From Spirochaetia bacterium (GTDB lineage: Bacteria; Spirochaetota; Spirochaetia; SP-2023): a stretch of 64,000 nt of DNA. The DNA lies in assembly GCA_965263295.1 (NCBI GenBank), contig OZ253665.1, positions 288,001-352,000 on the forward strand, read 5' to 3'. Positions 19,757-33,573 of the stretch are shown one piece after another; position 1 is the first letter of the stretch, and each line of letters starts with the position of its first letter. The notes below the pieces were generated by a model. The model did no database searches. It saw only the letters and a list, made by a program, of their open reading frames with translations, and was not told the DNA's origin. The translations under genes were made by a program, and so were the position numbers.

Positions 19757-20471
19757 GATACCGTAGTTACGAGATGCTAGTCCACAGTGAAATACACCGT
19801 ATTTGTACGGCGGCCTGGCATGATTCCTTATTTTTGACATAGCGGGTCGCTATTCCTCGCAAGCGCTTGCTCGATGATCTCGTTGCTATCGTAACCTTTA
19901 TCAGCCAACAAATACTCCGCCGTCAATCCCTCTATCAAGGTTCTGGCTTGAGTGCAATCTGCCGTTGTACCTTTTGTAACAACAACCCTGACCGGCAAAC
20001 CATGCGAATCCACGGCCAGATGCAATTTTGTGTTGAGCCCCCTTTTGTACGATTCATGTCTTGATTGCCCCCTACGGCACCCGCCGCATGAGGATGCACC
20101 TTGCAATGACTGGCGTCAATCATCAGCCATTTGTAGTCCGGCTCATCGATCAATATTTCCATCAATTTTTCCCATATTCCTTTGTCACGCCATCGAATAA
20201 AGCGACGATGCGTGTTACTCCAGCCGCCATAGTCAGGCGGTAAATCTCGCCACGGCGCACCCGTGCGCATGATCCAGAAAACGGCATTGATAAACAGGCG
20301 ATTATCTCGTGCTACACCACCCCAATCCCCTGAACGACCAGGCAAATGCGGTTCCAATAGCGCCCAAACTCTATCTGAAATATCATGCCGGCGATGTGCT
20401 GCCATTGAATTTGCTCCTATAACTGAGAAAAGGCAATTGTACCATTTAAAATATTTCGTGACTACACCATC
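19757..20471 (-). mobile_element. IS5-family (IS427-group-like) insertion sequence, internally deleted
   Basis: Imperfect 19-bp TIRs GATACCGTAGTTACGAGAT (19757-19775) and GATGGTGTAGTCACGAAAT (reverse complement of 20453-20471), 14/19 identical. CTAG at both ends. Two-ORF transposase inside. Confidence 0.9.
19767..20405 (-). pseudogene. IS5 transposase (OrfA plus frameshifted OrfB) with internal deletion
   Basis: OrfA: DNRLFINAVFWIMRTGAPWRDLP...IDASHCKVH. AAAAGGGGG slippery site at 20038-20046. OrfB: NTKLHLAVD...ADKGYDS. It then jumps out of frame to the C-terminal RGIATRY...IS* (19767-19859). Confidence 0.88.
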
Positions 20472-20597
20472 TAGCGATATTTCCACCAATTGGTGCGGCA
20501 GCCGGCTGTATTCTAGTACCATGCGGCAACGGATGGCGTAGGGGCAGCGGCGAAATGAATACAGAATATAGGGATGGGGGGCTTGTGCCGTACTCAT
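20472..20597 (-). pseudogene. Glutathione S-transferase N-terminal fragment truncated by the IS
   Basis: ILYSFRRCPYAIRCRMVL...VEISL, a typical GST-N start. It ends at the IS CTAG and does not continue on the far side of the IS. Confidence 0.8.
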
Positions 20598-27971: not shown

Positions 27972-29690
27972 TTACTGTGGATAATCGGGAGTAGGCGGGG
28001 AGATAATATTTATAGGAATTTCATAAATGTCTTCCGCAATAGTATTTTTCTCAATGATAAGTTTGAGAGTATATTTTTCGGTACTAAGACTAGGAGGCCA
28101 TTCAAATTGTATTTGATTTTTATTCATAATAAAATTATTATATATCCCAGGTGATTTTGGGGAGTTGTAGAAAATTCTGATAGTAATACTAAATTCTTTC
28201 TTACTAAGATCTTGCAAGGTAGTATCTGCATCTTTAAAATCAATTTCAAAGTGCAGTTGCTCATTTTGATATATTTTAGAACCATTGATCAATTGAACTT
28301 GTTTAATTTCATTCTCTTTTCCTTTTACATGATTTAGTGTAACAGGAGGCAGGGGGATGACAGTTATATTAGTTTCAAAAATATCTTTCGCAATGATAAG
28401 TTGGAGAGTATGTTTGCCGGGAGATAATTGGCAGTTAAATTCTATTGTATTTCTTTTTTTTATTTGACCTTCCCATTTTTCTCGGAAAGAAGATTCTTTT
28501 TTTTCAGAAAAGAGAGTAATATCATTTTCTTGTTTTTGATCTTCAAGTTCTTGTTTTTGATCTTCAAGAAAATTTTCCAAGGTAGTCTCTGGATCTTTAA
28601 AATCAATATGAAATTGCAGTTGATCCTTTTCATGTATTTGAGAGCCATTGAGCAATCGAACTTGTTCAATTTTATTCCCCTCTCCTTCTACACGAATTAG
28701 GGAAACAGAACGACTCCCTTCTTCAGAGGATTTTTTAGTTGTGGGCTTTTCTGTGGGTGGCACAGGAGTCTCAGTTTCGGGCTTTTCTTCGGTTTCCGTC
28801 TCCGCCTCTACAGTCTTAGTTGCGGGCGTGGCCTTGCCCGATTGAGATTGGCCCTGTTTGGGTTTTTCTGTGACAGGAGTACCGCTTGACTCTGTTGGGG
28901 CCGGGGTCTCTACAGTCCCTTCCTTTTCGACTTTAGCCTCATCACCTTTTACACGAGTTAGGGAAACAGAACGACTCCCTTCTTCAGAGGATTTTGTCTC
29001 AGTTGTGGATTTTTTTCTGGTTTCCTTCTCTGGCTCTACAGCCTTAGTTGTGGGCGTGGGCTTGCCCGCTTGAGATTGGCCCTGTTTGGGTTTTTCTGTG
29101 ACAGGAGTACCGCTTGACTCTGTTGGGGCCGGGGTCTCTACAGTCCCTTCCTCTTTGACATGGTCTATGGGTCCATGTTCAGAAAAAACTTGCGAGATAG
29201 TTTCTGGGTCCAGATTACAGGCGCTTCGCATTATATTAGAATTAGGTATCCACAACTTGGCGACGATTTGTAGTTCTATTCCATTTTCCCGTTCAATTTT
29301 TTGCTGTATTTCTTCTAGCAGTTTTGACGGCAGTGCATCCGGCAGAGTGAATTGTTTGACATCCTGACCTTGCTTTGGCCATTCTATCGGTTTGTCTTTT
29401 ATCCTCAGACCCCAAGAAATGATACAGTCTCGCCAGATAAGCGGGGCCACGATGGGCTCATTGAGATTACTATCGTAGACGAGCTCGTTGTCTTTTTTAA
29501 TTTGGTCGACGACATAAACCGAACTTGTGTCAGCCTTTAGCTTAATGCGAAAGACATTTTCACTCTTGGGGCTTTCTCGGTGTTCTGCAGTATCATTGCA
29601 GCCTGCGAGCATTAGGAAGGTCCATATATATATATATATATATATATATGGTGATTTAGGGAAACGAAAATAATTTTTTTTGCGCGGCAT
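27972..29690 (-). CDS. Repeat-rich putative surface lipoprotein
   Basis: AGGAGG RBS; basic N-terminus; lipobox LMLAG-C; duplicated P/T/E/K-rich linkers; two homologous AT-rich C-terminal domains (QVRLLNGSQI...HIDFKD / QVQLINGSKI...EIDFKD). Confidence 0.8.
   Translation of the reverse strand: MPRKKNYFRFPKSPYIYIYIYIWTFLMLAGCNDTAEHRESPKSENVFRIKLKADTSSVYVVDQIKKDNELVYDSNLNEPIVAPLIWRDCIISWGLRIKDKPIEWPKQGQDVKQFTLPDALPSKLLEEIQQKIERENGIELQIVAKLWIPNSNIMRSACNLDPETISQVFSEHGPIDHVKEEGTVETPAPTESSGTPVTEKPKQGQSQAGKPTPTTKAVEPEKETRKKSTTETKSSEEGSRSVSLTRVKGDEAKVEKEGTVETPAPTESSGTPVTEKPKQGQSQSGKATPATKTVEAETETEEKPETETPVPPTEKPTTKKSSEEGSRSVSLIRVEGEGNKIEQVRLLNGSQIHEKDQLQFHIDFKDPETTLENFLEDQKQELEDQKQENDITLFSEKKESSFREKWEGQIKKRNTIEFNCQLSPGKHTLQLIIAKDIFETNITVIPLPPVTLNHVKGKENEIKQVQLINGSKIYQNEQLHFEIDFKDADTTLQDLSKKEFSITIRIFYNSPKSPGIYNNFIMNKNQIQFEWPPSLSTEKYTLKLIIEKNTIAEDIYEIPINIISPPTPDYPQ
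28689..29152. repeat. Intragenic tandem duplication (about 230-260 bp units)
   Basis: 83-nt identical block at 28842-28924 and 29070-29152; a second near-identical block at 28689-28733 and 28950-28994. Confidence 0.9.
29624..29649. repeat. (AT)13 microsatellite inside the lipoprotein signal peptide
   Basis: 26 nt of alternating AT, encoding YIYIYIYI. Confidence 0.95.
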
Positions 29691-29714
29691 ATGCCTGCCT
29701 CCTCAGGTTCAAAA

Positions 29715-29746
29715 TAGATATCCCATAGTATCCCATAGATATCCCA
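29715..29746. promoter_or_regulatory. Triple direct repeat TAG(A)TATCCCA upstream of the lipoprotein gene
   Basis: tagatatccca tagtatccca tagatatccca, 10-11 bp period, 25-55 bp upstream of the start codon. The repeat is seen directly; the regulatory role is inferred. Confidence 0.45.
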
Positions 29747-30012
29747 AGGGGCGGATAAAGGTGGCGAAAATTGAAGTAAAAATTGGATAGGCAAAATGCC
29801 GCAGATATTTACTTTACATTTGTGATGTATTTTTCATTTTCCGATGAAATACTATTTTGAAATATTGTTTAAAATTTGCTTGCAATATTTCTTGCTTGCG
29901 ATCTTATTTATACATATATTCTATGTTTTAGTAAATAGTTTTTGCATAAAATTATTATTTTTTATACTTTGATGATTTTGCCTGTTTAATCGACCCTTGG
30001 ACCAGGCATGCA

Positions 30013-30189
30013 TTGGCCGGCTTGTCGGCAGAATGTCGTTTATTTGGCCGGTTATATTTTTTGCCTTCAGCTCGCTGCTCTGCCTAATATTTCTGTGGCC
30101 GTTTTGCAGCTTGTGCGGCACATGGTGAAACGTGGCAAAACTCAGCCGGCCAAGATAGCCGGTGCTGATCGGTGCGAAAGCCCCGGCCC
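30013..30189 (+). pseudogene. Degenerate nfeD duplicate, left part
   Basis: Aligns by eye to 32214-32388 (ttggccggcttgt...tcagctcgctgct...actcagccg.ccaa.atagc...gctgatcgg...gaaagccc.ggccc), with indels. Confidence 0.8.
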
Positions 30190-30229
30190 GGTTCTTCCTC
30201 CAGATAAAACGTTAAGCAATGAGATGCTC

Positions 30230-30258
30230 TTGAAGAAAGTGAAACAAATTTATACAAT
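30230..30258 (+). promoter_or_regulatory. sigma70-type promoter of the inserted cassette
   Basis: TTGAAG (30230-35), 17 bp spacer, TACAAT (30253-58). Confidence 0.6.
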
Positions 30259-30270
30259 GCCAAATAATAA

Positions 30271-30358
30271 CAGCCTCGGCAAACTGAGGGAAAGTCAGGA
30301 CAAATAGCTCCCGTTCAGGGTGCGGGGGAGCCAAAGCAACTTGAGCAAAGTCAGGCTG
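30271..30358 (+). ncRNA. Candidate structured leader RNA
   Basis: CAGCCT...AGGCTG closing stem; hairpins CCTCGG-CAAA-CTGAGG and GCTCCC...GGGAGC; imperfect direct repeat ending AAAGTCAGG twice; GC-rich patch within AT-rich DNA. Confidence 0.4.
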
Positions 30359-30401
30359 CTAAAGGTTGTGCATAAACTTAGAACACTTTTGTTGGGTAAA
30401 T

Positions 30402-30728
30402 GTGGACAATAACGAGACAAGAGTAGCGTTAGCGCGCTTGGAACTAAAACGCCAGACAAGGCAGTATATTCTGTATGGTTTTCTGGCTTTGGCTTCCGTT
30501 ATTGCTATAGCCGTAGTTTCTATCTATCTAGTACCAAGTATTGCAGGAAGAAAGACAGAATTCCTCGCGAATGTTAATATTTCTATGGCATTCTCTTGGC
30601 TGGTATCCGGGGCTTCTATGATGTATGGACTAAATCAAAGAGGACAAAGGAAAAAGGACAATAAACGGTTAGGTAGGCAGATACAGTTATTGAAAAGTCA
30701 ATTACAATCAAAGGCAGAGAATATATGA
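30402..30728 (+). CDS. Hypothetical two-TM membrane protein with basic coiled-coil tail
   Basis: GTG start (an alternative TTG is at 30366); two hydrophobic segments; ATGA overlap with the next gene. Confidence 0.7.
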   Translation: MDNNETRVALARLELKRQTRQYILYGFLALASVIAIAVVSIYLVPSIAGRKTEFLANVNISMAFSWLVSGASMMYGLNQRGQRKKDNKRLGRQIQLLKSQLQSKAENI

Positions 30729-31255
30729 ATAATTTAATCGTTTTAATGAACCTAGTGATATTGGCAATAATAGTATTCTTAGTTCATCGCGCTGTAATAG
30801 ACAAGTACATATCTGAGCTGCAAATATTACAGAATGACCTGTTTATACATGCTTGCCAGCACCATGAATTAAACAGCGAGAGCTTTTTATTCATGCAAAG
30901 ACAGATAGAACTGCATATTGAAAAAGCCGAGATACTTACTTTTGGTTTTATGCGTGATTTACATAAATTCTATAATAAACATACTATAATAATTGAAAAA
31001 CCTTCTCTGAGCCTGGAGTACGATAAAGGGTTTAAACAACTCAATTTTCGGACTATTGATTTAATGGTTTTGAGAGCCCCCCTACTGTGGCTAATGATTA
31101 TACCAGCTTTTATATGGGCCATTGGATACTTAGTATGCAAGGCTATGAAAGCCGATGGTACTTCGGGTAAGGGATCTATTCTTAAGGAAGCCATATATAG
31201 CCAAGTCTCTAACCGTTGTGTTCCCGAATACGAAAAGCTAAATATGGCTGTCTGA
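30725..31255 (+). CDS. Hypothetical membrane protein (TM, helical domain, TM)
   Basis: 176 aa AT-rich ORF, translationally coupled to the upstream gene. Confidence 0.7.
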   Translation: MNNLIVLMNLVILAIIVFLVHRAVIDKYISELQILQNDLFIHACQHHELNSESFLFMQRQIELHIEKAEILTFGFMRDLHKFYNKHTIIIEKPSLSLEYDKGFKQLNFRTIDLMVLRAPLLWLMIIPAFIWAIGYLVCKAMKADGTSGKGSILKEAIYSQVSNRCVPEYEKLNMAV

Positions 31256-31338
31256 GATAACCATACTGTAGTAATCACCTCTCGCAGTTTTAGAATCGTG
31301 CCAGTGCTGCAAATGTTAGCGGTGGGGGGGAGAACTCT

Positions 31339-31407
31339 GGCCCTCGCGGATATCCCGGAGCTGGAAGGCAGGCTATGACTTCCGATGCCGAGCGGTTGAC
31401 ATCAAGG
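31339..31407 (+). pseudogene. Degenerate nfeD duplicate, right part
   Basis: ggccctcgcggatat...ggctatgacttccgatgccgagcggttgac matches nfeD 32384-32485 (ggccctctcggatat...ggttatggcttccgacgccgagcgattgac). Confidence 0.75.
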
Positions 31408-32090
31408 TAATCCCTCAAAGAGGATTATCCCCTAAATACCTGAATATAGAAGGGGGATAAGCATAACGACTTGAGAGCTAGATATCATGCCAACGCTTTG
31501 CTACTCTGCTATCTGAGGTAGTTTTGTGGGGTCGTTGGCGCCTCCCGTCTCGTCCTGTGTATTCTTTAAACGAAGAGAATTTTTTTTCAAATTGAAAGGC
31601 CCTTAACAAACACACGCATTCGTTTAGATGATTGCCATATGAATCCACTTCAAGCTCATTCATTATGTTCATTTTTCCAACTTTTCCTCCTGGCACAGCC
31701 GATAGAATCTATACATATTTAAATCTATCTTATTCAGTCTATTTACAGATAGCGAGATAAGATTTGATAACTACACGGGGGAAGCTAAAGACCAGAAACT
31801 CCCTCCTGCTTGCAAAAGGATAATGTAGAAATGGCGCTAGGTTATATGGCAAATACTCACTTTTAAAAAAAACTGAATAAATTATAAGTCTTTATATCAG
31901 TATTATAAAAACAGTTTATAATATATGTATTTAATTTTTGTCTATACTTTTGTTTGGGTTTGCTGTCGGGGCCAGTCGGGACAAAGTCTTGCGGAAATGT
32001 GATACATCCATATATTGCAATGTTGTCGGCAATGTTGTCGATATTGCCAATAATTGTATGATGAAATTTATGGAAGTGGAGCCCCGTTTT

Positions 32091-32585
32091 ATGGTCTTTG
32101 ATTTGTACTTGTTGACCCACCTGTGGTTGTTGTGGATTGCTCTGTTAATTTTGTTTTTAGCTGCGGAAGGTATATCGCAGAATTTTATTACCATTTGGCT
32201 GGCTTTGGGGGCTTTGGCCGGCTTGTTGGCGGAGCGGCTGTCATTGTCGTTTACTTGGCAGGTTGTATTTTTCGCCCTCAGCTCGCTGCTGTGCATAATA
32301 TTTTTGCGACCGTTTTGTATGCGTGTGCTGCATAGTAAGACTCAGCCGACCAATATAGCGGCGCTGATCGGCCAGAAAGCCCAGGCCCTCTCGGATATTC
32401 AGGGGAGTGAAATAGGGCAGGCGAAAGTGGGTAGCCAAATCTGGAGTGCGGTTATGGCTTCCGACGCCGAGCGATTGACGCCAGGCGAAAAAGCAGTTGT
32501 CCGCGAAATCCGTGGGGTCAAGTTGGTTCTGGCAAAAGAACCGGACGCAGGAGAAATTGCGGGCAACAGCGAGCCGAGTTCCTGA
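32091..32585 (+). CDS. NfeD family (short, YbbJ-like) membrane protein
   Basis: TM bundle, then an OB fold (LIGQKA...GQAKVGSQIWSA...VVREIRGVKLVL). Upstream of the SPFH gene. Start set at the ATG at 32091 with GGAG upstream. Confidence 0.88.
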   Translation: MVFDLYLLTHLWLLWIALLILFLAAEGISQNFITIWLALGALAGLLAERLSLSFTWQVVFFALSSLLCIIFLRPFCMRVLHSKTQPTNIAALIGQKAQALSDIQGSEIGQAKVGSQIWSAVMASDAERLTPGEKAVVREIRGVKLVLAKEPDAGEIAGNSEPSS

Positions 32586-32688: not shown

Positions 32689-33573
32689 ATGAGCGTTATT
32701 GCCATAATCCTGATTTTGATTGTGCTGGTTCTGGTATTTGCCAACCTGCGCATTGTCTCTCAGTCAAATTCGTATGTATTGGAACGCCTGGGATCTTATC
32801 TGTGCAACTGGGAGCAAGGCCTACATTTTAAGATGCCCTTGATTGACCGCATTGTGGCCAAGGTATCGCTCAAGGAACATGTGGTCGATTTTGCCCCTCA
32901 AGCTGTGATTACCAAGGACAATGTGACAATGCAGATCGATACGGTGATTTTTTATCAGATCACTGACCCGAAGCTGTTTGTCTACGGTGTTTCCAATCCG
33001 CGCACGGCTTTGGAAAACCTCTGTGCCACTACGCTGCGCAATATTATCGGTCAGCTGGAGCTTGACGACACGCTTAGCTCGCGCGATGTGATCAACACGC
33101 GAATGCGCACAATTTTGGATGAGGCCACCGATCCTTGGGGCATTAAAGTCAACCGTGTGGAAGTTAAGAACATTCTGCCACCTGAGGATATTCAGAATGC
33201 AATGGAAAAGCAGATGCGCGCGGAACGCGAACGCCGCGAACAAATCTTGCGGGCTGAAGGTCAGAAGACGGCGGCTATTTTGGAGGCGGAGGGTAAGAAC
33301 AAAGCTGTGATTCTGCAAGCTGAAGCCGACAAAACGGCAAAAATACGCCGTGCCGAGGGAGAAGCCGAGGCTTTGTTGCGCGTACAGGAGGCCACGGCTA
33401 AAGCTATCGGCTTGATTAAACAAGCCGCACCCGATCGCGGTTACCTAGCATTGAAGAGCCTGGAGGCCATAGGGACTCTGGCGGATGGCCAGGCGACCAA
33501 GATCGTGGTACCTGCGGACATGAAGGATCTCTCCGCCTGGGCGGTCTCGCTCAAGGAGCTGGGCCACAGCTAG
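32689..33573 (+). CDS. SPFH/Band 7 (QmcA/stomatin-like) protein
   Basis: VLERLG, QAVITKDNVTMQID, WGIKVNRVEVKNI, MEKQMRAERERR. Confidence 0.95.
   Translation: MSVIAIILILIVLVLVFANLRIVSQSNSYVLERLGSYLCNWEQGLHFKMPLIDRIVAKVSLKEHVVDFAPQAVITKDNVTMQIDTVIFYQITDPKLFVYGVSNPRTALENLCATTLRNIIGQLELDDTLSSRDVINTRMRTILDEATDPWGIKVNRVEVKNILPPEDIQNAMEKQMRAERERREQILRAEGQKTAAILEAEGKNKAVILQAEADKTAKIRRAEGEAEALLRVQEATAKAIGLIKQAAPDRGYLALKSLEAIGTLADGQATKIVVPADMKDLSAWAVSLKELGHS

Follow-up and report, generated by a model that had tools for sequence, protein, structure and literature searches.

An AT-rich two-gene insertion in a decayed nfeD copy

The window analysed here is a 64,000-nucleotide stretch (C1:288001-352000) of G000, a Spirochaetia genome of 2.41 Mb assembled in one contig. 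Near its middle a low-GC piece of 1,149 bp interrupts a decayed duplicate of nfeD and carries two short, overlapping genes, which we call ORF1 and ORF2. The features of the locus, in window positions, are as follows.

30010-30189, plus strand: 5' part of the decayed nfeD duplicate, with several indels (73% identity to 32211-32388 of the intact nfeD, E 1e-26)
30185-30189: left GGCCC direct repeat
30190-31338: low-GC insertion, 1,149 bp, probably missing from a co-occurring strain
30191-30201: left arm of a weak terminal inverted similarity (9/11; p ~0.002-0.02, post hoc)
30230-30258, plus strand: candidate sigma70-like hexamer pair, not above chance
30402-30728, plus strand: ORF1, 108 aa from GTG (120 aa from TTG at 30366), phrog_27816 family by profile
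30725-31255, plus strand: ORF2, 176 aa, with hydrophobic segments at residues 3-21 and 120-138 around a predicted helical domain
31325-31335: right arm of the weak terminal inverted similarity
31339-31343: right GGCCC direct repeat
31339-31405, plus strand: 3' part of the decayed nfeD duplicate, by nfeD similarity
31938-32585, plus strand: intact nfeD frame, source of the duplicate, true start probably later (Pfam NfeD, E 6.5e-11)
32689-33573: SPFH gene following the intact nfeD (Band_7, E 1e-41)

The original prediction, made from the sequence alone, read this locus as an AT-rich insert in a decayed nfeD duplicate, and the alignments agree with it. Similarity to nfeD picks up again past the insert at 31339-31400, the right flank aligning over 31330-31358 (76% identity) and 31371-31400 (87% identity; BLAST E 0.008-0.03), so that nfeD-like DNA lies on both flanks with GGCCC at both junctions. 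The GC content of the insert is 39% versus 49% for the genome, a level equally low in 3.6% of the genome's windows. The weak inverted similarity that had been noticed between the ends is also recovered: 9 of 11 positions pair, and against random 1,149-bp windows this gives p ~0.002 near the ends and 0.02 anywhere in 25 nt, with parameters that were set post hoc, after the match was seen. Inside the insert there is no transposase or integrase ORF, as the prediction had stated, and none of the elements listed for G000 is a cognate or multi-copy element with such ends. The 5-bp GGCCC repeat at both junctions is what a non-autonomous IS-derived transporter (a MITE with cargo) would leave as a target-site duplication; the repeats are either target duplication or microhomology. 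As searches of G000 turned up no further copy of either end and this genome has no IntI over the cut-off, we infer the mechanism of insertion: a single event, either of the transposase type or by microhomology at GGCCC, would have put the piece into a gene copy that was already dead, and we propose that the insert was retained because its target was already a pseudogene. The source of the piece would likely be a temperate phage or other mobile DNA.

The DNA to the left of the duplicate has features of its own. Positions 29600-29987 are non-coding and AT-rich, include a TA run and have repeats of 66-86% identity in at least five other places of G000. This stretch sits upstream of a lipoprotein-like gene, a 572-aa ORF (27972-29690, minus strand) with internal repeats and no Pfam match that varies strongly among strains in the read sets. 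Further away, two overlapping ORFs at 19828-20597 (minus strand) resemble by eye an IS5-family transposase split over two frames.

Part of the region is present in five sequencing runs of two studies, none of them recorded as RNA. An empty site was sought in this related sequence, and one contig fits it. In run X3 a filled contig of 1,360 nt contains the insert with no differences, and a second one, 204 nt long and of similar depth, connects 30159 with 31406, compared with an expected length of ~202-206 nt for the empty allele; this second contig comes from one sample, matches on its left side over 27 letters, which is under the 31-letter bar, and is represented by its matched ends, the intervening letters not being shown. 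The insertion is probably strain-variable, with a probable empty allele coexisting at similar depth in this one sample. A low-depth contig of 1,573 nt in sample S1 (runs X1 and X2) matches 31231-31287, the end of ORF2, and then runs into other sequence, so that a second context to the right of the pair exists within that sample. The motif at the loose end of this minor contig occurs in none of the four genomes of the genus, and three matches to it in the collection looked like chance and were rejected.

ORF1, ORF2 and their upstream region

The two frames do overlap at the ATGA that was proposed to couple them: ORF1 runs to 30728, and ORF2 begins at 30725. The upstream region did not behave as predicted. 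TTGAAG-17-TACAAT, taken for a promoter of the insert's own, exists and matches at 9 of 12 positions, but the region holds 12 such promoter-like sites compared with 8.7 +/- 2.9 in shuffled sequence, and the leader, described as structured, folds no better than its shuffles (z -0.14 and -0.32, computed with DNA rather than RNA parameters) and has no Rfam match. No obvious ribosome-binding site stands in front of ORF1.

ORF1 is a predicted membrane protein with a basic C-terminal helix, modelled by AlphaFold2 from a shallow alignment as a helical hairpin (pLDDT 69, pTM 0.32). The model of ORF2, likewise from a shallow alignment, is all-helical (pLDDT 61); searched for a known fold, it had no Foldseek match at E<=0.001, and the structures it did resemble were generic helical bundles (Z<=9.1). 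Hydropathy analysis finds at least two hydrophobic segments in all eight ORF2 proteins analysed, and for ORF1 two segments in five of eight; of the remaining three, the window's protein has one and the others have none above threshold. The C-terminal part of the ORF1 family is basic, and the window's ORF1 is without the family's C-terminal tail. Invariant alignment positions are mostly small or hydrophobic and form no evident enzyme motif, and neither family matches a toxin family in Pfam, NCBIfam, PHROGs or PADLOC. An intact, 98%-identical ORF2 was found in another assembly.

Relatives of the pair in genomes, phages and plasmids

Searches that started from the window's own proteins returned little. 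A single-sequence search with ORF2 gave only protein P0001 among 31 candidates and one with ORF1 gave none among nine, whereas phmmer over 1.84 billion proteins returned P0001, P0004 and P0003, the last a repeat protein that was rejected as compositional. Profile A3 matched 2 of 576 and, in Spirochaetia genomes, 2 of 401, G000 included. Pattern scans of viral contigs with A3, A4, P0004, A7 and A8, and of genome and metagenome contigs with A3, confirmed nothing; tblastn found no match of the G002 ORF2 in phages or of the G002 ORF1 and ORF2 in plasmids, and blastn of the insert against plasmids gave only matches at E>=0.09.

The link to a wider family runs through G002, a genome of the same genus, in which both genes are adjacent and in the same order at 27-28% identity (E 1.3e-6 and 4.7e-9 per genome). 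A protein encoded in G002 is attributed by one source to Candidatus Haliotispira prima, which places the host of the window in that genus of spirochaetes. In G002 the pair is located just within a Mu-like element, ~300 bp from its end and opposite the lysis genes. The element spans ~27.8 kb (C1:229790-257557), carries transposase, repressor, tail and lysis genes and ends in inverted CAAGACGYGA repeats. Its lysis genes are upstream of the repressor and, among the listed ORFs, early and tail genes are present and no head or terminase gene was noticed; judged by this gene content it may be a head-less, tailocin-like derivative.

A two-row ORF1 profile gave four further matches in 401 Spirochaetota genomes, three of them followed by a whole ORF2 relative and the fourth, at a contig end, by the first 27 codons of ORF2 as read by eye. 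A phrog_13156 search matched in 5 of 401 genomes; two weak matches (E 7-8e-4, each with a stop) were dropped. The ORF1 relatives match phrog_27816 (E 1e-12 to 1e-21) and the ORF2 relatives match phrog_13156 (E 6e-14 to 5e-109), two families of unknown function. The window's proteins match neither family directly, and the G002 ORF1 reaches only E 0.016 against phrog_27816.

The pair is also found at the end of a Mu-like prophage contig (G520), on plasmid lcp3 of Leptospira interrogans, at a metagenome locus (L109) and in P2-like phages of Burkholderia, between the replication/integrase genes and portal Q. Morons in Burkholderia phages in general are a subject of Ronning et al. 2010 (PMC2920897), in the accessible part of that paper. 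On plasmid p2 the ORF2 gene lies behind a DUF2335 gene in place of ORF1. Two Leptospira plasmids (L105 and L106) have near-identical ORF2 genes in the same position, one preceded by phrog_27816 and the other by DUF2335, an apparent partner swap as judged from the sequences.

For counting, three Burkholderia phages with identical ORF2 were taken as one locus, their ORF1, which has no PHROG match at 1e-5, being included by position and aligned motifs; L108, with the same ORF2 as L109 and little upstream DNA, was counted together with L109. On this basis ORF1 precedes ORF2 in nine of ten loci, the exception being p2 with its DUF2335 gene. Five of the ten are on prophages or plasmids (G002, G520, lcp3, p2 and the Burkholderia phages) and the other five stand alone among housekeeping genes (the window, G598, G626, G438 and L109). 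The co-occurrence expected of the two genes is borne out by this order, which together with the probable empty site supports their description as a mobile two-gene membrane module. In the ESM Atlas each family has 30 unnamed look-alike clusters, with top scores of 0.95-0.97 for ORF2 and 0.93-0.95 for ORF1, the top rows being mostly from Pseudomonadota plus Uroviricota and Acidobacteriota.

The window's proteins diverge from the family core, and they were scored with models from which the window and G002 had been left out. With such an HMM the window's ORF1 reaches E 4.8e-6 in a set of 9,323 targets, where the next background match is at E 0.49, and by this profile score ORF1 belongs to the phrog_27816 family. 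For ORF2 the corresponding value is E 0.13, and hhalign of the window's ORF2 against three relatives gives P 0.0037 at a probability of 9% over 76 N-terminal columns. As these direct scores go no further, it is the G002 link, together with position and hydrophobic pattern, that supports the membership of ORF2, which on these grounds is likely a divergent member of the family formed by phrog_13156 and the 1TM protein of the AC1 locus described below. The earlier remark that the two proteins have no recognisable domain holds for the window's proteins taken by themselves and fails for their relatives, which match phrog_27816, phrog_13156 and the 1TM-TIR model.

Resemblance to the Rst_2TM_1TM_TIR locus

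PADLOC model PDLC02977, named '1TM-TIR', matches four of ten ORF2-family proteins (E 2e-9 to 1.2e-4), and its length is covered nearly in full by ORF2 relatives. Two more proteins match more weakly (E 0.015, that of G002, and E 0.02), and four of the ten, including the window's ORF2 and P0001, have no match at E<=10. PDLC02977 is taken to be the 1TM protein of the AC1 '2TM + 1TM + TIR' locus because of its name, a length of 186 and the 2TM-TIR model next to it. The 2TM-TIR model matched none of nine ORF1 relatives; over genomes it matched 0 of 5, and no control matched it either. PDLC02976 and PDLC02979, tried as partner models, proved unrelated.

The AC1 locus belongs to a P2-like phage and has the gene order 2TM, 1TM, TIR; cloned with its three genes together it protects against lambda, LF82_P8 and P2, and the authors suggest that the TIR protein makes a messenger for the membrane proteins, the proposed effectors, all according to the accessible part of Rousset 2022 (PMC9122126). 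The same part of that report places the P2 defence hotspot between the replication gene and portal Q, the position to which that of the Burkholderia pair is equivalent. In the accessible part of one survey, Rst_2TM_1TM_TIR was undetected in that survey's bacterial genome set (10.1101/2024.10.26.620412).

The pair is like Rst_2TM_1TM_TIR in that a small 2TM-type gene precedes a gene of ~180-200 aa, in that ORF1 lies upstream with a size and architecture similar to those of the 2TM protein, and in that one relative occupies the portal-proximal slot of a P2-like phage. It is unlike it in that a TIR gene is absent beside every pair examined. In addition, the ORF1 relatives do not match the 2TM-TIR model, and the window's ORF2 has two hydrophobic segments, whereas the accessible AC1 table lists one, and is too divergent to match the 1TM model. 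The window's ORF2 would accordingly be tied to the 1TM family transitively, via G002, and by position, and ORF1 would be the positional counterpart of the AC1 2TM protein.

No TIR gene stands beside the window's pair, where nfeD remnants alone follow ORF2, and none was seen beside the other pairs with readable downstream DNA, those of G520 and G438 ending at contig edges. TIR_2 (PF13676) has no match in G000, a genome 92.6% complete by markers, and is present elsewhere in two of five genomes searched. Nor did a PADLOC scan of 33 proteins from the pair loci show a defence island.

Discussion

Based on our data we propose, tentatively and with somewhat less than even confidence, that the insert is a horizontally acquired TIR-less form of Rst_2TM_1TM_TIR that acts by abortive infection through a directly triggered membrane complex. 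As the TIR gene is missing, the pair is not a member of Rst_2TM_1TM_TIR as defined and is best filed as a TIR-less variant outside it. The insertion, the conserved gene order, the carriage in accessory slots of prophages and the match of ORF2 relatives to the 1TM protein are the observations behind this proposal. The original prediction had named anti-phage, exclusion or toxin-immunity functions for the pair; the anti-phage part gains from the match of the ORF2 family to the 1TM protein and the toxin part finds no toxin family to match. Its further suggestion of an undescribed system has to be narrowed: the pair is related to a system published in 2022, and it is the TIR-less form for which we found no description, in a literature search that covered few subscription journals and no bioRxiv supplements.

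In the mechanism that we envisage, ORF1 and ORF2 would form a joint unit of the inner membrane that halts phage growth and needs no nucleotide signal for it. The ATGA overlap would couple the synthesis of the two proteins and keep it about equal. The ~100-residue helical domain of ORF2, between its hydrophobic segments, may sense a phage protein or envelope stress directly, upon which ORF1, with its predicted helical hairpin and basic tail, would oligomerise or be released and the membrane potential would collapse, such that the infected cell dies or stalls. ORF1 would in this way play the part of the 2TM protein. A parallel is lambda RexAB, which we take to be a two-component membrane abortive-infection pair: two genes on a prophage that, as envisaged here, act through an effector in the membrane and do without a second messenger. 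Unlike in RexAB, to which no sequence or structure similarity was found, both partners here are predicted membrane proteins.

Several results count against a TIR-less form of Rst_2TM_1TM_TIR. The activity of AC1 without its TIR gene is untested in the accessible part of PMC9122126. The PADLOC scan of 33 proteins showed no defence island at the pair loci, and half of these loci are alone among housekeeping genes. The window's proteins are divergent, its ORF1 lacks the family tail and its promoter match is at chance level. Weak scores of the window's ORF2 and the failure of all nine ORF1 relatives to match 2TM-TIR also weigh against it, as far as sequence comparison goes.

A broader reading, possible though rather doubtful, is that the pair is a complete signal-free anti-phage system distributed across Spirochaetota, Burkholderia phages and other phyla, in which phrog_27816 and DUF2335 are exchangeable 2TM partners and the TIR gene of AC1 is a separate add-on.

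Among the alternatives to a TIR-less abortive-infection system, superinfection exclusion fares best and is still unlikely. The pair would be constitutively in the membrane and block phage DNA entry or the injection channel, as prophage morons often do. Two predicted membrane proteins without enzyme motifs would suit such a role, and so would the slots of the pair in a P2-like phage and at the ends of two Mu-like prophages, which resemble those of morons. The protection given by the AC1 locus extends to P2, a related phage, which likewise suits exclusion (accessible part of PMC9122126). Classical exclusion proteins are, however, mostly single genes. Against exclusion, too, the known relative comes together with a TIR protein, and its membrane proteins are proposed to be effectors (accessible part of PMC9122126).

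We consider it more unlikely that the family is functional elsewhere and that this copy is a neutral, decaying passenger, a stranded fragment poorly expressed or inactive. The weak promoter match, the lack of an obvious ribosome-binding site before ORF1, the strong divergence from the family core, the probable absence from a co-occurring strain and the lack of a TIR_2 gene in G000 are all in keeping with this idea. Yet both frames are intact and coupled, ORF2 is intact at 98% identity in another assembly and in G002, at 27% identity, both genes are still intact, implying that selection has long acted on this branch.

Less probable again is a membrane toxin-antidote pair, an addiction module in which one protein would be harmful by itself and its partner would act as the antidote, keeping the piece in place regardless of phages. 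The absence of any match to a toxin family in four databases and the probable empty allele that coexists at similar depth in one sample speak against addiction, even though it could account for the tight coupling and conserved order, for the stand-alone insertions among housekeeping genes at five of ten loci, and for plasmid p2, where a near-identical ORF2 lies behind DUF2335 as if a partner were needed yet exchangeable.

That the insert consists of attC-bounded integron cassettes dropped at a secondary site is very improbable: GTTRRRY-like words occur at ~30208, 30365 and 31315, IntI scores over its cut-off in 127 of 401 Spirochaetia genomes and G002 holds an IntI fragment, but none of the four genomes of the genus (G000 and three congeners) has IntI over the TIGR02249 cut-off, an attC screen that does pick up genuine sites at integron loci detects no such hairpin of paired R and L boxes in the insert, and the non-coding parts of the insert have no BLAST similarity to 50 integron loci. 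A single attC site had come from a pattern built on that same site and was rejected as circular. In G002 itself, locus L027 (G002:C1:2591258-2594674) has cassette-like genes in divergent orientation together with an integron integrase that is truncated.

If the membrane pair works alone, as a TIR-less form of Rst_2TM_1TM_TIR would, the TIR-messenger model of that system would be incomplete and the system would be far commoner than detectors report. Should the signal-free reading be true, defence catalogues would miss most copies and DUF2335 would gain a candidate role. Two PHROG families that lack annotation would gain a candidate function through the pair, and the locus would be a case in which landing in a pseudogene led to the fixation of phage cargo in a host-associated spirochaete.
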